Origin: Candidatus Poribacteria bacterium
Lineage (GTDB): Bacteria > Poribacteria > WGA-4E > WGA-3G
DNA: 64,000 nucleotides
Assembly (NCBI GenBank): GCA_965214095.1
Contig: OZ243938.1
Location: 5,088,001 to 5,152,000, forward strand
Direction: 5' to 3'
This document shows, piece by piece, positions 9,759 through 62,832 of the stretch (the stretch's first letter is position 1; each line of letters begins with the position of its first letter). Both the position numbers and the translations under genes were made by a program. Below the pieces are notes generated by a model. That model was not told where the DNA came from. It saw only the letters and a list, made by a program, of their open reading frames with translations, and made no database searches.

Positions 9759-10808
9759 TTACGTATGGTCTCTATGCCATTCCTGAACTGCTCTTGGAAT
9801 TTCCTGCAGGTTTTCAATAGTGGTTTGAAGGGGGATAGCACACTCAGGACCAATCAGCGGGACACCTGCATCAAGATTTTTCATAACTTCTGCTCTTACG
9901 TCTTCCGGTTCTTTGGCAAAAAGCGTTTCAGGATTGTTGATATTGCCAACCAGGGCGATCCGTTTCTGGACAATATCCATAGATTCTTTCGGTTCGTTCT
10001 TTGAGTCGTAGTGGAAGGCTGCCATTCCTGTTTGCGCAATGTATTCCATCCGATCCACAGTGCGTCCACAGATATGTAAAATTAATGGTATAGGAATTCT
10101 ATCTACAAATTCAATGTGTAGGTCGCGGAGATAACGTTGATAGTATTCTCCACTCACAAGGTCACCTGTTGCGTGATCGGGGAGTGTAAGAGCATCTGCA
10201 CCTGCTTCTATCTGTGCAATACCAAACTGCACTGTCGCTTCCTTCATACGATCCAATGCGAGTTTTGTTTTACCCGGATCATCAAGCGATAACAACAGGA
10301 ATGGTTCTACACCGAAGCAGTGGTATCCGAGCGACCAAGGTCCCATCGTCTTACCGATGACAGCAACTTCATCACCATATTCTTTTTTCAATATCTTAAT
10401 CGCTTCAAGCACACATTGAGTATCGGGATGTGTGAGGAAATCATTGGGAATAGAAATGTCGTCAACATCTTCCCATATCGGTTCACGCATCTTGACGGTG
10501 GGCCAGTTATCCTTCTGTTCCCACTGTATTTTGCAGCCGAGAGCACTGGATTCTTGGATAATCGTGAAAACTGGCATAATCGTGTCAAAACCGAGTTCCG
10601 TATAACCTGTAGCGGCAAGCCTTGCCATTAGTTCAGGTTCACGATTTGCTTGTGGAAAGGGGGCATCAACTAAATCCATCAATTCCACTGTTGCAACGGA
10701 GGTAGGATTGCAAACAGGGGTGCGGTCAGTCGGTTCATTGCGGAGAGCAGCAAGAACACGTTCACGACCTGTCATCGCCTTTATGGTTTCACCATCTTTA
10801 TTATCCAT
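9759..10808 (-). CDS. MtaA/CmuA-family (UroD-fold) corrinoid methyltransferase
   Basis: MTGRERVLAAL..DRTPV, GPWS, QIEAGAD, Zn motif LHICG...PEC, GNI. Confidence 0.88.
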   Translation of the reverse strand: MDNKDGETIKAMTGRERVLAALRNEPTDRTPVCNPTSVATVELMDLVDAPFPQANREPELMARLAATGYTELGFDTIMPVFTIIQESSALGCKIQWEQKDNWPTVKMREPIWEDVDDISIPNDFLTHPDTQCVLEAIKILKKEYGDEVAVIGKTMGPWSLGYHCFGVEPFLLLSLDDPGKTKLALDRMKEATVQFGIAQIEAGADALTLPDHATGDLVSGEYYQRYLRDLHIEFVDRIPIPLILHICGRTVDRMEYIAQTGMAAFHYDSKNEPKESMDIVQKRIALVGNINNPETLFAKEPEDVRAEVMKNLDAGVPLIGPECAIPLQTTIENLQEIPRAVQEWHRDHT

Positions 10809-20162: not shown

Positions 20163-20254
20163 ATACCAAATCAACCTAAATTGTAGGGGCAGGGTTCCCC
20201 TGCCTGTCCGTGTTCTCAGCATCAAAAGCAATACAGATCTCGTTAATTTGGTAT
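20163..20254. mobile_element. 92-bp MITE with internal GTAG REP
   Basis: TIR ataccaaat/atttggtat; gtaggggcagggttcccctgcc at 20183. Confidence 0.6.
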
Positions 20255-20264
20255 GACAATGAAT

Positions 20265-21617
20265 CTATTCCAGTGAAAGAGTTACATCAATCTGTTCACC
20301 ATTACGTAGTAATTTCACCAGCAAAGACTTTGCTTGTGCTTGTTCTTGTAACACATAACCGATTACACCGCTTTCTGAAAGGCGGTCTGTACGTTCACCG
20401 AAACCAACAATGATGTCACCACGACGGATTCCTGCCCTTTGTGCATTCGTCTGTCCACCACCTCTACGTCTATCGCGACGAGCAAGATTCTCAACATGTA
20501 ATGCCATCGCAGTGTGATCAATCCCACTTTGTTTTCGTTCAGCATCAGACAAGTCTTGAAGCGTCATCCCACCGAGGGCAACAAGACGCAGTTCACCTGT
20601 TGTCGTACGCCAAGAGATATCGCTCTGTTTACGCCAACCAGGGTTGAGTGTAAGATTGAGAGAAATCTCTTCTCCATGACGATTTACTTTTGCCGGTAAT
20701 GTAGTGTTTTCTGGAGAACGGTGCAACACCCACTGCAAATCTGCAATAGAGATGATCGGTTGTCCAGCAAGCGTTAAGACTTCATCCGCCCGTTCAAATC
20801 CATCTTTTTCTGCAGAAGAACCTGGTGTGACTCTACTAACTTTCGCACGATGTTTTGAAGAAAAGTGAATACCTAACAGGTCTGGCATTGGAAAAGGATA
20901 TAACACTTCATCTGGCACCGGTTTCCTATCATACCAGTGAATCTCACGCCTTGCTTCACCAATTTGATGGCAATGAATACACTGTCCTCCAAGCCGTTGA
21001 TTGAGATTCACATCGGATGGAAAACGTAATAAAGCAGGATAAGCCTCGGGTGTTTTCTTTAACGGTTCAGGACCTGTTTTGGCTGCTAAAATATCCTTGT
21101 TCTCTGGGTAACCTTCATGTAATTCAAGAGCGGCTTCAAGTGCAAGTTTAAATCCCTCTATAGATATATCTTTGCCAGCATTTCGGAAGTCAGTCCGTGT
21201 TCCGAAACGTCCGTAAATTGTTCTGTCTGCATTCATGAAAAATACTGCAAAAGTGAGATCATAATCAAATTGAAACAGAGATAGATCAATTCCGTTTCCC
21301 TGTACAATCCGAACCCGTACAAACTGTTCCATTAAATCTTTGATTTCTTTATCGTGACGAACAACCTGTTCGTCAAAGTCTTGGCAAGACACTCACGGCA
21401 CTCAGCGGAAAACTACTAATAACGGTTGTTCTGTCTTTTCCGCTTGTTCAATCCCCTTATCAAGGTCGTTATAGATCCAATAGCCAGTAGATTTCACCAT
21501 CACTTGATCTTGTGCGACTTCTCTGTCTCCATCTCCAAAACACAGGATAACTGCAGACACGAAAATCATAAAGATCAAAAAATGTTTCAATAATTTCATC
21601 AACGTTTCAAACTCCAT
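20265..21617 (-). CDS. Thioredoxin-like/PDZ selenoprotein with two in-frame UGA (U-V-P-U), about 450 aa
   Basis: ORFs 21402..21617 and 20265..21392 are in frame and read PLLVVFR-TGA-V-P-TGA-VSCQDFDEQV; signal peptide, Trx fold, CIHCH, two PDZ-like domains. Confidence 0.85.
21355..21390 (-). promoter_or_regulatory. Candidate bacterial SECIS hairpins
   Basis: mRNA GUCUU-GCC-AAGAC (21390-21378), then perfect 9-bp stem UGACGAACA-GGU-UGUUCGUCA (21375-21355); G-led loop 26 nt after the second UGA and 35 nt after the first. Confidence 0.7.
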
Positions 21618-21752
21618 ATATCAAAAAAATGTAATGTGTTTTACATGTTTTTTGATATACAAGTATTGAAATTGTTCGTTATTTTCAAAATGTTTTGTTT
21701 GACAAGAAATTTGGAATCTTTGGATAAGAAACGCTTACTCTATGACATTCTA

Positions 21753-27315: not shown

Positions 27316-30300
27316 TTACATTCCTCCACGCGGACTCCATTGTACCATATAATCGGAAGGCACTTCGCGGATGAACATAGACGTAGAAAGCTCACGATCA
27401 CCATATCGGTAGATTGTAGATGACAGAAACAGTTGCTTCTGAGCACGAGTCATACCTACGTAAAAAAGCCGACGTTCCTCTTCAAGCTCAGCATCAGTGG
27501 TGTCCTGTTTCCACATCGGAAAACTCCCTTCCTCCATTCCGATGATTATGACAACAGGAAATTCCGTGCCTTTTGCAGCATGAAGTGTCATTAATGTAAT
27601 CTGTTCTGTGTCATCATCTATCTCATCATAATTCGTCAGTAATTTCTGAAAACCCAAGAACTCTAATAGGCTGTTCCCTTGATCTGACTTCAGATATTGC
27701 AAAAGTAGAGTCCGAAACTTTGATTTAGTTTCTATCCAAGCAGTGTCCTCTTGCATAATAGGAACATCAGTCTCTTCTAACTCTTTAAAGTAAGCTTCAA
27801 CTTGTTCCTCTTCTGTTGACTCAAAGGGGAGATCTTCATGTATCTGTTGAGAACCTTCCTTGACCACACGTATAGCAGCGTTTAAAAATGCCCTCTCTTC
27901 TGTAATATTCTTGTCGTTTTTAACTGAAATATCTGTTTTGTCAAGAATACCAAGACCAACAAACGGCAATAAATCGGTAAGTGATTGCACTTCTCGCTTC
28001 TTTAGGTCAATCCTTATCAATTCCTTGAAAATTTGTCTGTTTACTTCAACATCTTCCATAGCACGATGTAAAGTTTTGTGTTCAATTCCAAATTTCTCAG
28101 CAAGTGATTCAATACCACATCGTTGACGAGGAAATAGTCTACGTGCGGTGACAAGTGTATCGTAGTAGGGATTTGTCAGATTCTGATCTAAACAATCCTG
28201 TAATCCACGTTCCAGAATTGGGTTGTCATACTGCGCGACATTATGTCCAATTAGGATACGATCTTGAATGAAACTATAGAATTTCGGGAGAACCATCTCA
28301 ATACTCGGTGCGTCCTTTACATCCTCACTACTTATACCGTGAACTTTCGTAACTGACGGTGGTATGTATCCACCGGGTGGTTTCACTAAGCGAGAAAACT
28401 TCTCAACTTCATTGCCAATTACATTAAGCCGTTTCGCTGCAATCTCAACAATATTTGCGCGTCTGATATCAACACCTGTAGTTTCTAAATCATAAATCAC
28501 CATATCAGACATATTCGGTGTTTCAAATCTACTCAATAACCGTTGGCAAAGTTTTAATGCGGCGATACAACGTATCTTACCTGAACCAAGTTGAATCACA
28601 TCTGACTGTTCAGAGATGGTAGTACCGATAAGAATTGATCTCGTCTCTATACCCTTTTCTCCCAGTTCTCCAAAGTCGCCAATAAGTATATTAACTGCAT
28701 TTCTGTTGAGTAGCTGTTCACTGTCACCATCTGAGGTTTCATTTTTGGGTAAATATTGGACTTCTACATTCTGATCAAGATAAGATTGTAGTGTTTGACT
28801 AATTATATATGCTGAACAATATTCATCTATGCCATAACTTGCAGTGATCTGAATTTGTTCACCACGATCAAGAACACTATACAGAACATCTTGGGCCAAA
28901 CCCAAATTTGATAAATCCGACTTATTCTCAATAGCAGCTAACTCTTTGTTGCGGTATGGACTTCGTATCATGTCTAATTTTTCAAATAGAATATTGACAA
29001 TTTTATCTATTTTTTTATCTTCAATTTCATCTTCCAATGTTGCCAATTGTTCCCAAAAACTACTGATGTTCTTTCGTGTTAATGGACCGACATCCTCTGG
29101 ATACTGTTCAATATTCCGTAGGAGTTCTTCCAATTCTAATTTTTCACGTTTTGCTAACCACTTCAGTCGCACCCAAGTAAGATCGTCAACCCTTTTTTCA
29201 GGAAAGTTAATTGCGATTTCTAAGTCACGTGGAAGTCGCCACTGAATATAACAGAGATATGAAAGAATACCCTTCAGTCTTTCGTCATCAAAGGAATTGG
29301 TTGGTCGTATCCGTTGAAATTTTATTTTAGATCGTATCAATTCTTCTGTCAGAACATCCGCGAGTCTGTGTGTCCTGTAAAATACGGCAATGTCGCGATA
29401 TGAAACATTCCGTTCACTAATCAATTTACTGATAATCCTGATAATAGTGCGTGCTTCCTCAACAGGAGTCATAAATGTATAGTGAAATATATCCCGTCCT
29501 TCATCTTTGTGGGATATAAGACTGTGCTGAGCCTGTCGCAAAGGATTATTCGCAATTACTTCTTCTGCAGCGCGTAGAATCGTTTCACTACATCTATAAT
29601 GATCGTCTAATTCAACTGTATATGGAGAGTAATTAGTTTTGAAATCGTCTATGAACTGCGGATTTGACCCGCGCCAACTGTAGATAGACTGGTCAGCATC
29701 CGCAACAACCATCAGATTGTTCTCTGGTGGAGCAGTAAGGAAACGAAGAAGTTGGTATTGAACTTCGTTCACATCATGATATTCGTCAACAAGGATGTGT
29801 GAAATCTTTTGATGGTATTCCTGCTGTACTTCAGCAACTTGTTCAAAAAGTATCACCGTTCTTATCAACAGATCATCAAAATCAAAGGCATTGTATTCAT
29901 TAAGTTTGCTATGATAGGCATTGAAGGCATTTACTATATTCGCTTCAGCATCAGGATCGTCTATTTCCGCGATATAATCCTGTTTAATCTCTATATTATT
30001 CTGAGCATAATCAAGTTTGCATTTTGCGTCGCTGATTGCATTCCGTAGTAACCACACAGGATAATCATTTGGGTGAAGATTCAACTCCTTTATGACTTCT
30101 ACGAGTATTTCATCCTGTATTTCTTGGTCAAAAATAGCAAAGTTTTCACTCAGACCGATGTGATGTACGTGACTTCTGAGCACCTTCACACAAAAAGCAT
30201 GAAATGTGGAAACATTAATATTTGAACCGTGCGGTTCTCCAATTTCATTGTTGACACGATCACGCATCTCTTGTGCGGCTTTATTCGTAAAAGTAATCGC

Positions 30301-30465
30301 AAGGATATTACCAGGCTTGATTCCGTGATGACGAATTAGGTAAGCAATACGGTGCGTAATGACTTTTGTTTTACCCGTACCAGGACCTGCAATTACAAGT
30401 ATCGGTCCAGTGTTGTGTTTTACTGCTTCTGTCTGTTTTTCATTTAAATCGTGGAGAATGTTCAT
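27316..30465 (-). CDS. UvrD/PcrA-type SF1A helicase with inserted degenerate RecJ-DHH and DEDDh exonuclease domains
   Basis: AGPGTGKT, TFTNKAA, TFH, VDEYHD, DADQSIYSWRG, YR, TLHAAKGTEF, EERRLFYVGMTRA; insert has DLETTG, GHN..YD and HRAMED. Confidence 0.9.
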   Translation of the reverse strand: MNILHDLNEKQTEAVKHNTGPILVIAGPGTGKTKVITHRIAYLIRHHGIKPGNILAITFTNKAAQEMRDRVNNEIGEPHGSNINVSTFHAFCVKVLRSHVHHIGLSENFAIFDQEIQDEILVEVIKELNLHPNDYPVWLLRNAISDAKCKLDYAQNNIEIKQDYIAEIDDPDAEANIVNAFNAYHSKLNEYNAFDFDDLLIRTVILFEQVAEVQQEYHQKISHILVDEYHDVNEVQYQLLRFLTAPPENNLMVVADADQSIYSWRGSNPQFIDDFKTNYSPYTVELDDHYRCSETILRAAEEVIANNPLRQAQHSLISHKDEGRDIFHYTFMTPVEEARTIIRIISKLISERNVSYRDIAVFYRTHRLADVLTEELIRSKIKFQRIRPTNSFDDERLKGILSYLCYIQWRLPRDLEIAINFPEKRVDDLTWVRLKWLAKREKLELEELLRNIEQYPEDVGPLTRKNISSFWEQLATLEDEIEDKKIDKIVNILFEKLDMIRSPYRNKELAAIENKSDLSNLGLAQDVLYSVLDRGEQIQITASYGIDEYCSAYIISQTLQSYLDQNVEVQYLPKNETSDGDSEQLLNRNAVNILIGDFGELGEKGIETRSILIGTTISEQSDVIQLGSGKIRCIAALKLCQRLLSRFETPNMSDMVIYDLETTGVDIRRANIVEIAAKRLNVIGNEVEKFSRLVKPPGGYIPPSVTKVHGISSEDVKDAPSIEMVLPKFYSFIQDRILIGHNVAQYDNPILERGLQDCLDQNLTNPYYDTLVTARRLFPRQRCGIESLAEKFGIEHKTLHRAMEDVEVNRQIFKELIRIDLKKREVQSLTDLLPFVGLGILDKTDISVKNDKNITEERAFLNAAIRVVKEGSQQIHEDLPFESTEEEQVEAYFKELEETDVPIMQEDTAWIETKSKFRTLLLQYLKSDQGNSLLEFLGFQKLLTNYDEIDDDTEQITLMTLHAAKGTEFPVVIIIGMEEGSFPMWKQDTTDAELEEERRLFYVGMTRAQKQLFLSSTIYRYGDRELSTSMFIREVPSDYMVQWSPRGGM

Positions 30466-54095: not shown

Positions 54096-54297
54096 GGTGA
54101 AATTCAGAACGTGATGCTTTAGTTATTACTTATACGAAGCGGTTCCAATAGGATTAAACCCGATCTTATGGTTTTTACATTATGGACACCTGACAATCGA
54201 TTTCAACGTTGTGAAGTACAATAATATATTTCAATATAACATTCTTTCAAAGAACTATTTCAATGACTAAATATTGTCATATACAGGAGTGACCAAT

Positions 54298-55419
54298 ATG
54301 CAATTGACTTTTCAAAAAGACGAACTTTTACACACACTTCAGATGGTGCAGGGAATTGCTGGGGGACGAAATACCTTGCCAATATTGTCAAATGTACTCA
54401 TACGCGCACAAAACGGGAACATAGAATGTGCTGCGACTGATTTAGAAGTTGGCATTAGAATAAAAGTTTTGGGGGACATCAAAGAAGAAGGTGCTATTAC
54501 CGTCTCTGCAAAGAAATTATCTGACATCGTACGTGAATTACCTGATGCGCCGATTGAACTGGTAACGACAGCAAATGACAGAGTCGAAATCACATGTGGT
54601 GAAGGTGTCTACAAAATAATTGGACTCTCCGATGAAGAATTTCCTGAACTCCCATCTGCAAATGGGGTAGGTATTCCTATTGATGGTGAAACTTTATGCT
54701 CTGTTATTCACAAAACGCAGTTTGCTGCATCAACGGATGAAGTGCGATATACATTGAACGGTTTGTATTTCAGTCTTATGGATGACAAAACTGAAGTGGT
54801 AGCAACGGATGGCACAAGACAGCTCGCTTTAACTTATTGTCCTTCCTTAAAAAGTTCGGATGAAGTCGCAGGATTTATCGTTCCATTGAAGACAATTAGA
54901 GAGGTTGCGAGAATTTTCGCGGAATCAGCTGAAGTTAAGATTTCTCACCAAAAAAACCAGCTCCTCTTTTCCGATGAAAACACGACACTAACGACACGTC
55001 TAGTTGAAGGTGAATATCCACCATATCAGAAACTGTTTCGTGATGCTTCTGATGGACGGACAGTTATCTCAAAAGAGGCTATCTTACGCGCCGCAAAACG
55101 AGTCTCTTTGCTCTCAGACCCAAAGAACTTCCTAATCTGCTTAGAAATCGATACAGAACAGATTCGGATTTCAGCGAAAACACCAGAACTCGGTGAGGCA
55201 CATGAGACAGTCTCTGTGGAATCTGGGACTGGCAGTGTACGCATCGGTTTGGATGCACGTGTGCTTTTAGATGTATTGACGCATATTGAAACTGATTCAC
55301 TCATTTTTGAGTTCACTGGAGAGTTTATACCATTGATCGTGAAACCTACAGGAGATATTGAGCATACTTGTTTTATCATGCCTATGCGTTTAGAACCTGC
55401 TTCACCATTGGAATCTTAA
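54298..55419 (+). CDS. dnaN: DNA polymerase III beta sliding clamp, paralog 1
   Basis: TLPILSN, ATDLE, ELP, EEFP, LNG, VATDG, RLVEGEYP, IMPMRL; ATG after AGGAG. Confidence 0.93.
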   Translation: MQLTFQKDELLHTLQMVQGIAGGRNTLPILSNVLIRAQNGNIECAATDLEVGIRIKVLGDIKEEGAITVSAKKLSDIVRELPDAPIELVTTANDRVEITCGEGVYKIIGLSDEEFPELPSANGVGIPIDGETLCSVIHKTQFAASTDEVRYTLNGLYFSLMDDKTEVVATDGTRQLALTYCPSLKSSDEVAGFIVPLKTIREVARIFAESAEVKISHQKNQLLFSDENTTLTTRLVEGEYPPYQKLFRDASDGRTVISKEAILRAAKRVSLLSDPKNFLICLEIDTEQIRISAKTPELGEAHETVSVESGTGSVRIGLDARVLLDVLTHIETDSLIFEFTGEFIPLIVKPTGDIEHTCFIMPMRLEPASPLES

Positions 55420-55516: not shown

Positions 55517-56626
55517 ATGGAACTTGCCTTTGAAAAAGATGAACTCCTTGATAACCTACAAACAATCCAAGGCGTAACAAGTGGACGCAACACTTTGCCG
55601 ATACTTGCAAACATTCTCATTCGCGCACAAGATGAGGGAATAGAATGTGCCGCGACCGACTTGGAAGTTGGCATAAAAGTAAAAGTAGACGGGACGATAG
55701 CAGATACAGGTGAAATTACCGTCTCTGCAAAAAAACTCGTTGACCTCGTGCGGGAATTACCTGATAAACCAATTAAACTCGTTACGACTGCAAATGATAG
55801 AATTGAACTCACTTGTGGCGATGGCACATATAAGATAATCGGACTTTCAAGTGAGGAATTTCCACCAGTACCGTCTACTAATGGAGAAGGATTAACTATT
55901 GATGGTGAAATGCTAAACTCCGTTATCCGAAAAACTATTTTTGCAGCATCTACTGAAGAGGTACAATTCCTTCTGAACGGTCTCTATTTCAACCTACTTG
56001 AAGATAGAACAGAGGTGGTCGCAACCGATAGAAACTATCTGGCATTAGCACATTGTGCCCCACTGCAGACATCTGAAGACGTTGAAGGGTTTATAGTGCC
56101 TTTGAAAGCAGTTAAAGAGATTGAACGCACGTTTGCTGATTCAGAAAGTGTGAGGATCTCTCTCCAGAATAGCCAACTGCTGTTCTCTGATGAAAATGCG
56201 ACGCTGATGACACGATTAGTAGATGGGAGATATCCTGAATACCAAACGATTATCCCGGAGTCTACAGAAAGCCGTGCTGTTGTATCAAAGGACTCATTTC
56301 TGCGCGCATCGCGCCGCGTGTCCCTTCTTTCCAATCCAAAGAACAATGCAATATGTTTAGAGATAGATAGTGAAAGAATTCATCTATCTGCAAATACTCC
56401 TGAACTTGGTGAAGCACACGAGACGATTGCAGTGGAATCCAGTACTGGAAGTGTGCGGATAGGACTGGATGCTCGGATGTTAACAGATGTGTTGTCGCAT
56501 ATTGAAACGACATCTCTCGTTTTAGAGTTCTCAGATGATGCCTCACCCTTCTTAGTCAAACCTGAAGGAGATGACGGACATCTATGTATCATTTCACCGA
56601 TGCGATTAGATGCAATCCACCAATAG
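55517..56626 (+). CDS. dnaN: DNA polymerase III beta sliding clamp, paralog 2
   Basis: TLPILAN, ATDLE, EEFP, LNG, VATD, RLVDGRYP, ISPMRL; AGGAG RBS. Confidence 0.92.
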   Translation: MELAFEKDELLDNLQTIQGVTSGRNTLPILANILIRAQDEGIECAATDLEVGIKVKVDGTIADTGEITVSAKKLVDLVRELPDKPIKLVTTANDRIELTCGDGTYKIIGLSSEEFPPVPSTNGEGLTIDGEMLNSVIRKTIFAASTEEVQFLLNGLYFNLLEDRTEVVATDRNYLALAHCAPLQTSEDVEGFIVPLKAVKEIERTFADSESVRISLQNSQLLFSDENATLMTRLVDGRYPEYQTIIPESTESRAVVSKDSFLRASRRVSLLSNPKNNAICLEIDSERIHLSANTPELGEAHETIAVESSTGSVRIGLDARMLTDVLSHIETTSLVLEFSDDASPFLVKPEGDDGHLCIISPMRLDAIHQ

Positions 56627-57198: not shown

Positions 57199-59922
57199 TT
57201 ATTTATTGTCTATCTCCCAAAGAAACACAGAACCATTATTACAACCGCTAACAAGGGTTTTTCCATCAGGACTAAACGCGATACTATCAACCCGCCCTAT
57301 ATGACCCATCAGTGTTTTCTTGTGTTCGCTGGTGTGTGTATCCCATAATTGAATCGTGCCATCTCCACACCCACTTGCGAAGGTTTTTCCATCCGGACTG
57401 AACGCTAAACACATCAAAAATGTATCTCCGCTAATTGTAATTTTGATTTTCCATGTGTCTATATCCCATAGATGGATAATCCCATCATTGCCTCCACTTG
57501 CGAGGATTTTTCCATCCGGACTGAACGCTAAACCTTCCACCCAATCATTATGTTCGGTAAGTACGATTTTATTTTCACCAGTTGCAACATCCCAGAGACA
57601 AATAGTTTCATCATTACTTCCGCTTGCAAGGATTTTACCATCCGGACTGAACGCGATACTATTGATCAACTTCTTATGTCCAATAAGTGTCCTTTTATGT
57701 TCGCCAGTGTGTGCATCCCAGAGGTGGATAGTATCGCCATCTTCACTTGCAAGTATATTTCCATCCGAACTGAGTGCTATATGCTTAACAAAACTGGTAT
57801 GTCCAGTAAGTATCAATTTGTGTTCGCCAGTGTGTGCATCCCAGATGTGGATGTCATCGTCAGTCCCACAAAAAAGAGTTTTTCCATCAGGGCTGAACAC
57901 TATACTGTAAGCCGATTCTATCTGTCCATTTTTAGGCTCGTTAAGTGTTCTTATGGGTTGCCTTGTATCCGCATCCCATAGACGAATAATTCCACTGGCA
58001 TCCCCACTTGCGATATAGTACCCATTCGGATTGAACGCAACACTGTGTACCTCCTGCGAATGTCCAGTAAATATTTTTTTCGCGTTGCCGGTGTGTACAT
58101 CCCAAAACCGTATGGTGCCATCGCCACCTCCACTTGCAAGTGTTTGTCCACCCGGACTGAACGCTAACCCACCGCGCCCTACATTTCGCGGGTGCTCGGT
58201 GATTATTTCCCTGTGTGTGCCAGAGTGTACATCCCACAGACAGATTGTTTCATCGCCATAGGACGTAGTAGCAATTGTTTTTCCATCAGGACTAAACGCT
58301 AAGTGGATAACGTGATCCTTATGCTTAGAGAGAATCATCTTGAGTTCGCCTGTGTTTAAGTCGTAGAGATAGACAGTGCCACTTACACTACCAACAGCGA
58401 CTATTATTCCATCTGGACTTAACGCAGCACTAATAGCAGAGCAATCAGGGTGCATAGCAAAAGTTTTCTTGTGTTTACCCGTGATCGAATTCCAAAGACT
58501 GATTTTGTCTCCCCTACTCATACTGACAAGAGTCTGTCCGTCTGGCGTGAATGATAAATCAGAACCATTATACGGATCATTCGAGAGTGTATACTTTTCC
58601 TCTCCAGTGATGGCATCCCATAATCGGATAGTGCCTTGCCGATTATTACTCGCAAGTATTTTGCCATTCGGGCTGAATGTTAAGCATGTGATATACTCTG
58701 TATTACGTCCAATGAGCGTTTCTTGCGTCCCTGTGATTCTATCATACAGGGTAATATTACCATCGGCATTTCCACTTGCTAAGATGCGTCCATCTGGGCT
58801 AAAAGCAAGGTGGAAGGCATGACTCGTATCAGCTGTGATTAGACTTGCCTCTTGATGTACTGTCACATCGTAAAGCCAAATACCGATGCCACTCGCAACA
58901 GCCAGCAACTTACCGTCAGGAGAATATTTTATATCGGCTATATACCCTTTACTGAGGCGCACTTTAGCATCTTCAGGCAGGTTCCATTGCATAGCATCTT
59001 GTGTTAGGTTGTTTTCCACGGTTTTTGTTCCTTTTGTTAAACCGTTGTTACTGTTTTTGCTGAGGTTAGTACCACCAACCCGGTTTTTCAATTTGGGTTT
59101 TGATTGAAGATTCAAAATAATAGGCGCGTCAACTATTTCAATTGTGGGTTCTGATTTTGCGTCAACGCTATACGGGCTCTGAAAATTAGCGGTGAATTGC
59201 TTACTTGCTCCCATCAACAAAATAACCAAAATAGCAGATGCGCCTAAAGCTGCAAACGGTAGCAACGGTTTACTTCCTAATGGAGATGTTTGTTTGATTG
59301 TGTCAATACGTCGTATGATGTTTTCAGTTAGATCTGGACTTAATGGGATGCTGCCGAGGGTTTCCCGAATTATGGACTCTTCGTTCTGTAAACGTTCTCG
59401 TGCCCGTTTAAGTCGACTTTTAACAGTGTTTGAAGATACACCTAAAAACTTGCTAATCTCTTCACAACTCATTTCACCGAGGTAGTGCAGGACCATCACC
59501 GTGCGTTCACTTTCTGGAAGTTTTTCCATGAGCTTCTGCACGATTTTACGTCTGTGTTCAACGGCTGCGTCCTCACGCTGTTCACAGACATAGTCCGCAT
59601 AAGCAGTTTTTTCAAGTGTCTTTTCACTGGTGGAATCCAAGGATTTCATGTCCATCCGCTTCTTTCTGAACCATGCTTTGCATTGTCGATTGGCGATGAC
59701 GTAAAGCCAACCAGCAAACTGACCCGGATTTTTCAACGAGGCGAGTCTTTGGTATGCCAGTAGGAAAGTATCCTGTGTAATTTCTTCAGCGATATGGAAA
59801 TCACCGATTTTCCGCCAGGCAAGCGCGTGAACGCTTTTTTGATATTTCTCAACTAACGCACTGAAAGCAGTTTCGTCACCTGACAATACTTCTTGAATCA
59901 GTTCAAAATCATCTCTTTCCAT
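57199..59922 (-). CDS. ECF sigma factor fused to TM helix and WD40 propeller (copy 1)
   Basis: Sigma2 (AEEITQDTFL..F.GWLY), sigma4 (EEISKFLG..TVKSRL.RAR), TM, WNLPEDAK cap, WD repeats. Confidence 0.93.
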   Translation of the reverse strand: MERDDFELIQEVLSGDETAFSALVEKYQKSVHALAWRKIGDFHIAEEITQDTFLLAYQRLASLKNPGQFAGWLYVIANRQCKAWFRKKRMDMKSLDSTSEKTLEKTAYADYVCEQREDAAVEHRRKIVQKLMEKLPESERTVMVLHYLGEMSCEEISKFLGVSSNTVKSRLKRARERLQNEESIIRETLGSIPLSPDLTENIIRRIDTIKQTSPLGSKPLLPFAALGASAILVILLMGASKQFTANFQSPYSVDAKSEPTIEIVDAPIILNLQSKPKLKNRVGGTNLSKNSNNGLTKGTKTVENNLTQDAMQWNLPEDAKVRLSKGYIADIKYSPDGKLLAVASGIGIWLYDVTVHQEASLITADTSHAFHLAFSPDGRILASGNADGNITLYDRITGTQETLIGRNTEYITCLTFSPNGKILASNNRQGTIRLWDAITGEEKYTLSNDPYNGSDLSFTPDGQTLVSMSRGDKISLWNSITGKHKKTFAMHPDCSAISAALSPDGIIVAVGSVSGTVYLYDLNTGELKMILSKHKDHVIHLAFSPDGKTIATTSYGDETICLWDVHSGTHREIITEHPRNVGRGGLAFSPGGQTLASGGGDGTIRFWDVHTGNAKKIFTGHSQEVHSVAFNPNGYYIASGDASGIIRLWDADTRQPIRTLNEPKNGQIESAYSIVFSPDGKTLFCGTDDDIHIWDAHTGEHKLILTGHTSFVKHIALSSDGNILASEDGDTIHLWDAHTGEHKRTLIGHKKLINSIAFSPDGKILASGSNDETICLWDVATGENKIVLTEHNDWVEGLAFSPDGKILASGGNDGIIHLWDIDTWKIKITISGDTFLMCLAFSPDGKTFASGCGDGTIQLWDTHTSEHKKTLMGHIGRVDSIAFSPDGKTLVSGCNNGSVFLWEIDNK

Positions 59923-60090: not shown

Positions 60091-62832
60091 TTACGGATTT
60101 ATTTCCCAGAGCAGCACAGTGCCATCATCACTACCACTAACGAGGGTTTTGCCATCAGGACTGAACGCGATGCTTCTAACCCAAGCTGTATGTCCAGTCA
60201 GCGTTTTCTTGTGTTCGCCAGTGTGTGCATCCCATAAGTTGATGATACCGTCTACACCTCCACTCACAAGAGATTTTCCATCAGGACTGAATGCCAAACT
60301 GAACACCCAATGTGAATGTCCAGTGAGTGTCATCTTACTTTTGCCTGTCCCTATATCCCATAGGTGAATGATCTTGTCACCACCTCCACTAGCAAGGGTT
60401 TTGCCATCAGGACTGAATGCAACGGTCTTAACACCTTCAAAACTGTATCGACTATTCTTATCTTCTAATTTCTCGGTATGTCCAGTGAGTATCATCTTGG
60501 TATCGCCAGTGTCAACATCCCATAGTCGTATCGTAGCGTCCTCACTACCACTGGCGAGGGTTTTGCTATCCGGACTAAAGGCAACGCTATAGACTCTGTG
60601 CTTATGTCCGTTGAGCGTTATTTTATGTTCACCAGTATGCATATTCCAAAGTCGTATAGTCATATCCTCGCTACCACTCGCGAGTGTCCTTCCATCGGGG
60701 CTGAGTGCTATGCTATGGATACCCCACGTATGTCCGGTGAGTAGCATTTTGTGTTCTCCGGTGTGTGGATCCCAAAGACGGATGCCATCGTCAGTCCCAC
60801 AAGCGAGAGTATTTCCATCAGGACTGAAGACCATACTTGATGCTGCGTCATTAAACTCTTTGAATGTTCTCATTTGGTGTCCAGTCTTCGCATCCCACAA
60901 ACGAATAGTGCCATCGGCATACCCACTTGCAACAATTTGCCTATTGGGGTTGAACGCTACGCTATAAACATAGTCCGAATTTCCAGTGATTGCAGACTTT
61001 TGGTTGCCGGTGTTCATATCCCAGAAACGGATGGTGCCATCTCCACTTCCACTACTTGCGAGTGTTTTCCCATCAGGACTGAATGCTAAACCCCAAATAT
61101 CTCCCGTGTGTTCAGTGAGAATAATCCTCTGTTCACCAGTGTGCACATCCCAGATACGTACTGTTTCGTCTATATATGATGAACTTGCGAGTGTTTTCCC
61201 ATCCGGACTAAAGGCTATGCTTTGAACGTCCACAGAATGTCCTATGAGTTTTCGCTTGAGTTCACCTGTGTTTAAATCTGAAAGGTAGATAATACCATCT
61301 CTACTGCCAATAGCAACTGTTTTGCCATCCGGACTGAACGCTGCGCAAAATACACTATCAGTATTTTCCACTTTGAATGTTTTCTTATGTTTACCAGTGA
61401 TTGCATCCGATATACAGACTTCGCTACCCCCAGTCACACTAACAATTGTCTTGCCATCCGGGCTGAATGAAATATAACCGATATTTTCCGGGAGTCCAGT
61501 GAAACTATCCTTATGTTCTCCGGTGATAGTATCCCAAAGTTGGACAGTATCACCGTCTCCACTTGCTACTATTTTTCCATCAGGACTGAATACAATGGTT
61601 GTGTGCGAGTTCGTATGACCTATAAGTGTTTTTTGTGCACCTGTGCTTCTATCCCACAGAATAATCGTCCCATTCCAGTCTCCACTCACAAAAGTGTGTC
61701 CATCCGGACTAAATGTGAGGCGATTGACTAAACCCGTATGGTCTGTGAGCAGGGCGACCTCTTGATGTGTTGTTGCGTCGTAGAACCAAATTCCGACACC
61801 ACTTGCAACAGCAAGAATTGTCCCATCAGGAGAATACTGTATTTCACTTATCATACCTTTACCAAGGCGGGCTTTAGCATCTTCAGGTAGGTTCCATTGC
61901 ATAGGGTCTTGTGCTAAGTTGTTTTTCACTGTTTTTGTTCCTTCTGTTAGACCGTTGTTACTGTTTTTGCTGAGGTTAGTACCACCAACCCGGTTTTTCA
62001 ATTCAGGTTTTGATTGAAGATTCAAAATAATAGGCGCATCAACAATTTCAATAGCAATTTCTGATTTTGAATCTACACTATACGGCTTCTGAAAATTTGT
62101 GATGAGTTGTTTGCTCGCGCCCATCAACAAAATCACCAAAATAAAGGATGTACCTAAAGCTGCAAACGGTAGCAACGGTTTACCTCCTGATGGAGATGTT
62201 TGTTTTATGCTGTCAATACCTTGCATGATGTTTTCGGTTAGATTTGGAGGTAATGAAACACTGCCGAGTGTTTCCCGAATTATGGACTCTTCGTTCTGTA
62301 AACGTTCTCGTCCCCGTTTAAGTCGACTTTTAACAGTGTTCGAAGATACACCTAAAAACTTGCTAATCTCTTCACAACTCATTTCACCGAGATAGTGAAG
62401 GACCATCACCGTGCGTTCGCTTTCTGGAAGTTTTTCCATGAGCTTCTGCACGATTTTACGTCTGTGTTCAACGGCTGCGTCCTCACGCTGGTCACAGACA
62501 TAGTCCGCATAAGCAGTTTTTTCAAGTGTCTTTTCACTGGTGGAATCCAAGGAGTCCATGTCCATCCGCTTCTTTCTGAACCATGCTTTGCATTGTCGAT
62601 TGGTGATGACGTAAAGCCAACCAGCAAACTGACCCGGATTTTTCAACGAGGCGAGTCTTTGGTATGCCAGTAGGAAAGTATCCTGTGTAATTTCTTCAGC
62701 GATATGGAAATCACCGATTTTCCGCCAGGCAAGCGCGTGAACGCTTTTTTGATATTTTTCAACTAACGCACTGAAAGCAGTTTCGTCACCTGACAATACT
62801 TCTTGAATCAGTTCAAAATCATCTCTTTCCAT
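60091..62832 (-). CDS. ECF sigma factor fused to TM helix and WD40 propeller (copy 2)
   Basis: Same architecture; sigma domain almost identical to copy 1. Confidence 0.93.
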   Translation of the reverse strand: MERDDFELIQEVLSGDETAFSALVEKYQKSVHALAWRKIGDFHIAEEITQDTFLLAYQRLASLKNPGQFAGWLYVITNRQCKAWFRKKRMDMDSLDSTSEKTLEKTAYADYVCDQREDAAVEHRRKIVQKLMEKLPESERTVMVLHYLGEMSCEEISKFLGVSSNTVKSRLKRGRERLQNEESIIRETLGSVSLPPNLTENIMQGIDSIKQTSPSGGKPLLPFAALGTSFILVILLMGASKQLITNFQKPYSVDSKSEIAIEIVDAPIILNLQSKPELKNRVGGTNLSKNSNNGLTEGTKTVKNNLAQDPMQWNLPEDAKARLGKGMISEIQYSPDGTILAVASGVGIWFYDATTHQEVALLTDHTGLVNRLTFSPDGHTFVSGDWNGTIILWDRSTGAQKTLIGHTNSHTTIVFSPDGKIVASGDGDTVQLWDTITGEHKDSFTGLPENIGYISFSPDGKTIVSVTGGSEVCISDAITGKHKKTFKVENTDSVFCAAFSPDGKTVAIGSRDGIIYLSDLNTGELKRKLIGHSVDVQSIAFSPDGKTLASSSYIDETVRIWDVHTGEQRIILTEHTGDIWGLAFSPDGKTLASSGSGDGTIRFWDMNTGNQKSAITGNSDYVYSVAFNPNRQIVASGYADGTIRLWDAKTGHQMRTFKEFNDAASSMVFSPDGNTLACGTDDGIRLWDPHTGEHKMLLTGHTWGIHSIALSPDGRTLASGSEDMTIRLWNMHTGEHKITLNGHKHRVYSVAFSPDSKTLASGSEDATIRLWDVDTGDTKMILTGHTEKLEDKNSRYSFEGVKTVAFSPDGKTLASGGGDKIIHLWDIGTGKSKMTLTGHSHWVFSLAFSPDGKSLVSGGVDGIINLWDAHTGEHKKTLTGHTAWVRSIAFSPDGKTLVSGSDDGTVLLWEINP

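Follow-up and report, generated by a model that had tools for sequence, protein, structure and literature searches.

A probable di-selenocysteine form of the Trx7/PDZ (seleno)protein family in Candidatus Poribacteria

The protein family catalogued in NCBIfam as NF041199, Trx7/PDZ domain-containing (seleno)protein, has been listed among selenoproteins since 2008, when the Global Ocean Sampling (GOS) survey reported it as a 'Putative secreted serine protease MucD' with a CxxU motif, and counted two selenocysteine (Sec) sequences and 12 homologues with Cys (PMC2398784). A 2022 review lists it as a 'PDZ domain-containing protein', again as CxxU (PMC9312934), and a 2026 review gives it as CxxU with one Sec. 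Here, we describe a member of this family from Candidatus Poribacteria—located on the minus strand of a 64,000-nucleotide stretch of contig OZ243938.1 (assembly GCA_965214095.1, positions 5,088,001 to 5,152,000; hereafter, the window)—whose reading frame contains two in-frame UGA codons. Like the NF041199 family, it combines a Thioredoxin_7 and PDZ architecture with a Sec codon at residue 75 (numbering of P0001) and has Cys-type homologues; unlike the listed CxxU form, it also carries UGA at residue 72, which gives two Sec codons and constitutes a difference of state, not of homology. The UxxU-xxC state is fixed in 24 Poribacteria-type and two Verrucomicrobiales loci, as against the one-Sec CxxU form that has been published. 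A literature search, with the NCBIfam description and the RefSeq records outside its scope, found no mention of a UxxU form of the Trx7/PDZ family. We regard the locus as a well-supported, real di-Sec form of a known selenoprotein family, and not as a new class.

UxxU motifs are known from other bacterial selenoproteins, i.e., a Prx-like thiol:disulfide oxidoreductase, the NF041115 metal-binding protein, the FmdB family and Group 4 [NiFeSe] hydrogenases (PMC13188914, PMC13582414), and a single selenocysteine insertion sequence (SECIS) serving both codons has been proposed for the UXXU hydrogenases (PMC13582414). The present locus resembles these cases in having UGAs three codons apart and a single downstream stem-loop with a G in the loop; unlike them, it belongs to an unrelated family and has a third conserved Cys, and the comparative support for its RNA element is unusually strong. 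In eukaryotes, Shchedrina et al. reportedly described in 2007 a UxxU diselenide in selenoprotein L (SelL), a redox protein with a thioredoxin fold. SelL is Prx-like, with a SECIS in the 3' untranslated region. The likeness to our protein lies in the UxxU within a thioredoxin fold, and SelL sets a precedent for a diselenide between Sec residues three positions apart; no homology is claimed, and the canonical register in the present protein appears to be U75/C78, not U72/U75.

The remaining parts of the protein have parallels of their own. MamE and MamP of magnetotactic bacteria are HtrA-type PDZ proteins with c-type haem 'magnetochrome' units (PMC3971196). Our protein likewise has a short CxxCH unit directly N-terminal to DegP-like PDZ domains in what is predicted to be an exported protein, and NCBIfam MamE matches over its PDZ part; unlike MamE and MamP, it has no trypsin domain and a single CxxCH, the resemblance being one of architecture only. 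The only solved structures that match the thioredoxin domain by sequence are 3fk8, a thioredoxin-like disulfide isomerase, and AGR2/AGR3; their CxxC or CxxS aligns with U75-V-S-C78, and they have neither a Cys at residue 72 nor a CxxCH or PDZ domain.

Two conserved UGA codons in a Trx7/PDZ gene

The features on which the analysis of the gene and its UGA codons is based are as follows.

20265..21617, minus strand: read-through open reading frame (ORF) of 450 codons plus a TAG stop, translated with TGA as U
21531..21599, minus strand: signal-peptide-like hydrophobic segment MKLLKHFLIFMIFVSAVILCFGD, recognized by inspection of the translation
21402..21404, minus strand: UGA1, residue 72, the putative extra Sec position of this lineage (Cys in most of the family)
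21393..21395, minus strand: UGA2, residue 75, the published Sec site of the family, aligned with the first Cys of the thioredoxin CxxC
21384..21386, minus strand: TGC, Cys78, third member of the triad, aligned with the second Cys of the thioredoxin CxxC

Translation with TGA as U reveals exactly two internal TGAs, U72 (21404-21402) and U75 (21395-21393), and the DNA at the junction, CGC TGA GTG CCG TGA GTG TCT TGC, falls within the protein context VVFR-U-V-P-U-V-S-C. Under translation table 11, the same region is a same-frame pair of ORFs of 71 aa (21617..21402) and 375 aa (21392..20265). An earlier reading of the DNA, made without database searches (the sequence-only reading), had joined these in-frame ORFs as R-U-V-P-U-V-S-C, in exact agreement with the sequence and its translation, and had anticipated that annotation pipelines would yield two fragments; indeed, public Poribacteria records annotate the gene as a 65-aa 'hypothetical protein' and a 354-aa 'peptidase'. 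The same reading called the gene hidden, which does not hold for the family, given its long-standing listing among selenoproteins. The likelier, conserved start is the ATG at 21599, located 65 codons 5' of UGA1 and the first ATG in 22 of 25 sequences. The signal peptide noted by the sequence-only reading is present as a hydrophobic, signal-like leader, and a comparable N-terminal leader occurs in all Cys-type homologues; such a leader implies that the protein is probably exported. The 64-kb window yielded no further pair of ORFs convincingly joined by TGA.

The sequence-only reading had also named a Trx7/PDZ (seleno)protein family, and the profile search bore this out. NF041199 has a curated cutoff of 300 bits, and the read-through protein reaches 391.4 bits (E 4e-117) over profile positions 1-389 of 390, which establishes it as a member; relatives lie above the same cutoff (L011, 389; L027, 374; L028, 396; L026, 413 bits).

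To place the two codons in a comparative context, we examined 29 loci from one scan of genome contigs (tblastn). Twenty-six of them are Poribacteria-type—25 titled Poribacteria and one (L018) titled 'uncultured bacterium'—and the others are from a member of Planctomycetota (L026) and from Verrucomicrobiales (L027 and L028). Both TGAs occur at identical codons in 26 of the 29 loci, namely L001-L023 and L025 (24 Poribacteria-type loci, with 72-96% amino-acid identity by tblastn) together with L027 and L028, a degree of conservation far beyond chance. L026 has TGC...TGC at the two positions (R-C-I-P-C-E-E-C), and L024 and L029 are without the UGA region of the gene. Across the 25 Poribacteria-type sequences, UGA1 and UGA2 are both TGA without exception, with the Cys78 codon being TGC in 20 and TGT in five. 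Moreover, the 45 codons 5' of UGA1 are stop-free in all 25 sequences, and their entropy by codon position (0.40/0.22/1.09 bits) shows the pattern of coding DNA in this frame. The frame is thus continuous, and both UGAs are under purifying selection. Additionally, the base 3' of each UGA is G in all 27 sequences, and in 24 of the 25 Poribacteria-type sequences CCG encodes the Pro that separates the two; these features may stem from demands on sequence context when two UGAs so near each other are decoded.

The homologues bear out the expectation that Cys should occupy both positions. All 19 full-length relatives, 43-47% identical to the window protein, read R-C-[IV]-P-C-x-x-C and are encoded, like the Cys-type homologues in general, as single proteins. 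C72, C75 and C78 are invariant in the 31 aligned sequences, and residue 72 is Cys in all 33 representatives that retain the N-terminus. We further collected 148 N-terminus-bearing proteins (P0122-P0269) from two N-terminal searches, a partial census dominated by longer, Cys-type fragments: 110 have the Cys triad, 23 end at the Arg, four end in ...FRCVP, one has an odd tail and ten do not match the pattern. The named records among the 23 fragments ending at Arg are from Poribacteria, and one of the four FRCVP fragments is from Verrucomicrobia. A fragment that ends after Arg indicates UGA at residue 72, and one that ends in ...FRCVP indicates Cys at 72 with UGA at 75, so the family appears to exist in three states—CxxCxxC, CxxUxxC and UxxUxxC—with the state of residue 72 across most of the family read from ORF ends, and not from the DNA of CxxU-type relatives. 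The CxxU of the literature corresponds to C72/U75 in the present numbering. A quick maximum-likelihood tree places the Cys, Poribacteria and Verrucomicrobiales groups cleanly apart, and does not distinguish between one and two origins of UxxU.

The family as a whole comprises 550 representatives at 50% clustering with E <= 1e-30. Of the best 150 of these, 50 start just past the redox motif and 34 are full-length Cys forms, which suggests that Sec forms are common and routinely clipped by gene callers. The split records, together with the representatives that start past the redox motif, indicate that too few members of the family are probably annotated as selenoproteins.

Some lineages can dispense with the gene. 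L029, a close relative with ~91-92% nucleotide identity, has a clean ~1.1-kb deletion equivalent to window positions 21630..20535; at L029:2895-3282 (corresponding to window 21736..20254), the start codon, UGAs, hairpin, thioredoxin domain, CxxCH and first PDZ domain are gone, leaving a remnant of 89 frameshifted codons. L024 lacks the first 129 codons through a 5' truncation, and L019 and L023 have frameshifts in the C-terminal part of the gene.

The downstream hairpin and the decoding of the UGA codons

Two hairpins had been proposed to lie directly downstream of the UGAs, at the positions given below.

21355..21375, minus strand: SECIS candidate, 9-bp stem with GGU loop (UGACGAACA-GGU-UGUUCGUCA; loop at 21366-21364)
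21378..21390, minus strand: 5-bp hairpin GUCUU-GCC-AAGAC, the smaller hairpin of the sequence-only reading

The larger element was found as claimed, i.e., a perfect 9-bp hairpin with a GGU loop at 21375-21355, built from the codons for D-E-Q-V-V-R-H. It folds with -10.3 kcal/mol (z -4.5), and none of 200 shuffled sequences was as stable. Its loop starts 35 nt past UGA1 and 26 nt past UGA2—distances that are the same in all 27 sequences—and reads GGU in 25 sequences and GUU in two. A published model of the bacterial SECIS (bSECIS) specifies a loop of 3-9 nt, a stem of 4-16 bp, a spacing of 16-37 nt and a minimum free energy <= -7.5 kcal/mol; position 1 or 2 of the loop, or both, must be G, and the loop usually begins with GG or GU (PMC13188914). 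The 9-bp hairpin fits all structural criteria of this model, and its spacing falls within the range for both UGAs.

Covariation in relatives, which had been suggested as a check, was examined in an alignment of 27 sequences (A1), ungapped over 80 nt. RNAalifold returned an 8-bp helix in all 27 sequences, with 215 of 216 cells paired (99.5%); none of 500 shuffles reached this value, and shifted partner columns gave 13-60%. The sole unpaired cell is an A.C mismatch in L007. Pairing-neutral changes comprise C-G to U-G in seven sequences and A-U to G-U in two, and a compensatory A-U to C-G change is found in both Verrucomicrobiales, where a codon change from E to A is offset by a synonymous change from GTT to GTG. 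The helix is thus conserved, with wobble changes and one compensatory change, and the fold energies at the site in L027 and L028 are -11.6 and -10.2 kcal/mol, respectively. At the equivalent place, the Cys-type locus L026 has no hairpin (-3.1 kcal/mol, z -0.06). A search with a covariance model built from the hairpin yielded no second copy in the window and no match in L024, L026 or L029.

Synonymous sites tell the same story from the coding side. Among 112 conserved codon columns with four- or six-fold degeneracy, an invariant third base occurs only in two GTT Val codons of the hairpin, which make up its loop and open its 3' arm. The columns with the next-lowest third-base entropies include the CCG that separates the UGAs and the CGT of the 3' arm. 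When entropy is taken over six-codon windows, the four lowest values (0.16-0.21 bits) all belong to windows that cover part of the hairpin or of the codons immediately 5' of it, and the next value is 0.56. The hairpin is under RNA-level constraint, and this is the strongest synonymous constraint in the gene.

The 5-bp hairpin fared differently. It exists, yet its fold energy of -2.9 kcal/mol (z -0.94) lies within the range of chance, 39 of 200 shuffles being equally stable; the stretch folds differently in other Poribacteria, and the helix is broken in both Verrucomicrobiales. As its energy is at chance level and its shape is not conserved, we rejected it as an independent SECIS, and it is probably not functional on its own. 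The claim of two SECIS-like hairpins therefore stands for the conserved 9-bp element and falls for its smaller neighbor.

Taken together, we consider it likely that the locus is one intact gene in which both UGAs are recoded, most plausibly as Sec, through a single SECIS, giving a U72-x-x-U75-x-x-C78 triad. The inserted residue would be Sec at both codons, with one hairpin serving the two. In this scheme, SelB-GTP-Sec-tRNA(Sec) tethered to the GGU loop would deliver Sec at UGA1, 35 nt upstream of the loop; three codons on, the same hairpin, now 26 nt downstream, would be reloaded to deliver the second Sec at UGA2, after which the ribosome would unwind the hairpin and translate D-E-Q-V-V-R-H. 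Published genome data speak for Sec use in the phylum. SelA and SelB co-occur in most sponge-symbiont bins, and by our own count of the columns in Table S4 of the same study, Ca. Poribacteria WGA3G has two SelA, one SelB and one SelD (PMC5649159); furthermore, Poribacteria are among the phyla with Sec-type hydrogenases (PMC13582414).

Several observations weigh against decoding as two Sec residues from one hairpin. None of selA, selB and selD was found in the 64-kb window or in the 29 loci, nor was a tRNA found in either. The covariation amounts to one compensatory pair in two related sequences, the signal being mostly conservation, and the hairpin doubles as coding sequence for the conserved peptide FDEQVV. 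Rfam gave 0 matches, both for the whole window at gathering thresholds and for 21250-21500 at E <= 10. The losses in L024 and L029 and the frameshifts in L019 and L023 show that the gene is not essential. SelB-dependent decoding in E. coli is sensitive to the spacing between UGA and SECIS, so that serving two UGAs 9 nt apart from one hairpin would be a mechanistic challenge. Finally, genomes with UXXU motifs are enriched for tRNA-ReC, which places Cys at a SECIS-dependent UGA (PMC13582414), so that one or both positions could be Cys.

This last point leads to the alternative that we rate highest, albeit as unlikely: the UGAs would be recoded through SECIS and SelB, with Cys inserted at one or both by tRNA-ReC or SelC* (C/U-x-x-U/C-x-x-C). 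The conserved UGAs, the hairpin and the Cys homologues fit such decoding equally well, and tRNA-ReC-like tRNAs are reported from ~56% of UXXU-hydrogenase genomes versus ~2.3% of other Sec-type genomes, where either or both UGAs may then be decoded as Cys (PMC13582414). However, the window and the loci, having no tRNA, offer no positive evidence for it. A Cys product would, moreover, make a one-step change from TGA to TGC or TGT neutral or favored, yet neither UGA is so changed in any of the 25 Poribacteria-type sequences, whereas the neighboring Cys codon alternates freely between TGC and TGT; this fixity argues that the residue is not simply Cys. Two tandem SECIS elements, with the hairpin at 21390-21378 serving UGA1 and the 9-bp hairpin serving UGA2, are a markedly weaker contender. 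The small hairpin has a G-first loop (GCC) starting 16 nt past UGA1, at the edge of the 16-37 nt range, RNAalifold detects a weak helix over alignment columns 11-30, and synonymous entropy is somewhat low at its Q and G codons. Its energy is nonetheless far from the -7.5 kcal/mol limit of the model and matched by chance; other Poribacteria fold the stretch differently, and its pairs show only one-sided changes, with one to three breaks per pair, besides the break in both Verrucomicrobiales. Since the small hairpin is too weak for the energy limit and its shape is not conserved, one SECIS is favored over two.

The remaining explanations dispense with recoding altogether. The locus could be a split or decaying gene, in which UGA1 ends a peptide of 65-71 aa and a separate PDZ protein of 375 aa (or 354 aa) follows downstream—an arrangement that matches the public annotation, with the normal use of TGA as a stop elsewhere in the window and the deletions or frameshifts of some relatives also in its favor. 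Against it, the pieces are in frame with exactly two TGAs in all 24 loci holding the region, the upstream piece is under coding-type constraint, and the Cys-type homologues are single proteins; the downstream piece would lose the leader, the first thioredoxin strand and the active site, and the constraint on the hairpin would serve no purpose. Sequencing or assembly errors, or a reassignment of TGA as a sense codon, are effectively refuted: the identical two TGAs are found in 26 independent assemblies, the homologues carry Cys and not Trp or Gly, and TGA is the stop of seven of the 49 complete ORFs in the window, so the genetic code is not reassigned. The conserved TGAs, the coding constraint and the TGA stops thus make gene splitting, faulty assembly and a changed code all very unlikely, and recoding of both UGAs as Sec from the single 9-bp hairpin is the explanation we retain.

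Register of the redox motif and candidate haem site

The domains of the read-through protein were assigned as follows.

21228..21479, minus strand: thioredoxin-like domain, Thioredoxin_7 (PF13899), residues 47-130, E 1e-15, 58 bits against a cutoff of 27
20967..20981, minus strand: C-I-H-C-H (C213, H215, C216, H217), a near-invariant CxxCH and candidate c-type haem site
20646..20876, minus strand: PDZ domain 1, PDZ_2 (PF13180), residues 248-324, E 2.5e-12, aligned with PDZ1 of DegP/DegQ
20271..20447, minus strand: PDZ domain 2, about residues 391-449, a weaker match

The protein of ~444 aa thus consists of a signal-like leader, a thioredoxin-like domain, a linker with CxxCH and two DegP-like PDZ domains. 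The PDZ-like domains named in the sequence-only reading are recovered as a Pfam PDZ at 248-324 and a second, sub-threshold one near 391-449: in the C-terminal 120 aa, PDZ_6 (E 7e-4) and PDZ_2 (E 8e-3) both remain below gathering in Pfam, and the family profile aligns with the tandem PDZ1-PDZ2 of DegP/DegQ in the Protein Data Bank (PDB), with the alignment to 22kg_A spanning 247-439. No Pfam match to a trypsin-like protease domain was found in the read-through protein, and TIGR02037 (HtrA/DegP) scores 55 bits against a cutoff of 416, over residues 253-446, which is the PDZ part only. In the absence of a protease domain, the source names 'serine protease Do' and 'peptidase' are misleading.

The alignment of the thioredoxin domain with 3fk8 is ungapped and weak (E 0.05 with a single sequence and 0.0017 with a 48-sequence profile of Cys-type N-termini), AGR2 also aligns without gaps, and the CTDC of 3fk8 and the CPHS of AGR2 both fall on residues 75-78, leaving residue 72 opposite a non-Cys; the PDB matches to 3fk8 and AGR2/AGR3 are weak overall (E 0.0017 to 0.1). 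These alignments suggest, without settling the matter, that U75 occupies the canonical N-terminal nucleophilic position and C78 the resolving one, with U72 as an extra site three residues upstream. The proposal that UxxU sits where a thioredoxin has its CxxC would accordingly apply to U75, not to U72; with the canonical CxxC at U75/C78 the two Sec would not simply be 'the CxxC', and a U72-U75 diselenide is hypothetical. On the other hand, C-[IV]-P-C at residues 72-75 resembles the classic CGPC, and among distant members above the NF041199 cutoff, C72 is kept in 33 of 33, C75 in 28 of 32 and C78 in 28 of 38. Of the three, position 72 is thus the best conserved in these comparisons, and a simple CxxC model does not account for it. 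Degenerate redox motifs such as RCVKTADKG, RCVPCPPGR and RCVPGKVGA occur in six proteins (P0291, P0292, P0320, P0324, P0339 and P0301), which retain the first Cys only, or the first two.

The CIHCH motif noted in the sequence-only reading was located at 20981-20967 and is invariant in all 31 aligned sequences. In a larger set of 122 sequences (P0001 plus 121 cluster representatives, each 300 aa or longer), C213 and C216 are each conserved in 119 and H217 in 120, with H215 in 113 and Q218 in 31; H167, a possible distal ligand, is present in 112 of 121. The conservation at 213-218 has exactly the pattern expected of a haem c site, as judged from sequence. Among the curated haem models in Pfam, Magnetochrome (PF18509) remains below its cutoff (13 bits against 30.4; E 0.079, over CIHCHQ), and Paired_CXXCH_1 does so in L027 only (14 bits against 20.6; E 0.042). 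A c-type haem on the CxxCH is therefore possible, and we treat it as a lead.

The architecture points to a redox function in which an exported U-x-x-U-x-x-C center would carry out thiol/selenol-disulfide chemistry, conceivably exchanging electrons with a haem on the CxxCH, while the PDZ pair would bind peptide substrates or drive oligomerization, as in DegP and MamP. U75 and C78 would occupy the canonical CxxC places, and U72 would replace the Cys of every full-length relative examined; the triad might then operate as a selenylsulfide or diselenide relay, possibly coupled to haem. A more far-reaching reading, which we put forward as speculative and consider unlikely, holds that residue 72 is a third, family-universal chalcogen outside the canonical CxxC that cooperates with a c-type haem on the CxxCH—e.g., by ligating the haem or by starting a Sec72-Sec75-Cys78 relay—and that was upgraded to Sec in Poribacteria and some Verrucomicrobiales.

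Genomic surroundings and significance

The window has a G+C content of 41% and contains genes for sulfatases and WD40/TolB propellers. Of the 26 Poribacteria-type loci, 18 have a DUF3500 gene downstream of the Trx7/PDZ gene and 23 have a methyltransferase there; neither is present at L026-L028, so no partner gene is shared across phyla. Between the gene stop and the DUF3500 gene, ~88 bp (window 20166-20253) are missing at the same site in L001 and L029, the closest relatives. This segment folds as a 13-bp inverted repeat around the GC hairpin GGCAGGG-GAA-CCCUGCC (z -2.8), the core of the repeat occurs once in the window, and the segment may be a small mobile or REP-like insertion.

Further genes were noted elsewhere in the window. 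Tandem dnaN paralogues for the DNA polymerase III beta clamp lie at 54274-55419 and 55517-56626 on the plus strand, 65% identical and both above the TIGR00663 cutoff. On the minus strand, 57199-59922 and 60091-62832 encode tandem fusions of ~910 aa, each joining an ECF-type sigma-70 domain to a hydrophobic segment and a long WD40/TolB-like propeller; the two are 69% identical overall, and their first ~300 residues are nearly identical. Also on the minus strand, 27316-30465 encodes a protein of 1049 aa in which a PcrA/UvrD-type helicase (residues 4-522) is fused to a DEDD 3'-5' exonuclease domain (~653-836), and 9759-10808 a homologue of the MtaA/CmuA family of methylcobamide methyltransferases that exceeds two NCBIfam cutoffs (NF004889, 260 against 244; TIGR01463, 245 against 235), here in a member of a sponge-symbiont phylum.

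The Trx7/PDZ locus provides a conserved natural case of two UGAs 9 nt apart combined with one supported hairpin, in which RNA constraint is measurable at synonymous sites. With such a short, defined element, the question raised by UXXU motifs—one SECIS for two codons versus Cys inserted by tRNA-ReC—becomes testable. Should the haem-cooperating role of residue 72 prove true, the protein would be an exported, haem-coupled di-selenoenzyme in which a single minimal SECIS serves UGAs at distances of 35 and 26 nt, and the gene would offer a natural test case for the reach of SelB. For the family itself, the U-x-x-U-x-x-C triad and the near-invariant CxxCH in an exported PDZ protein suggest a chemistry that is undescribed for its members, and one that would be at work in abundant sponge symbionts, a group reported to be enriched in Sec machinery (PMC5649159).

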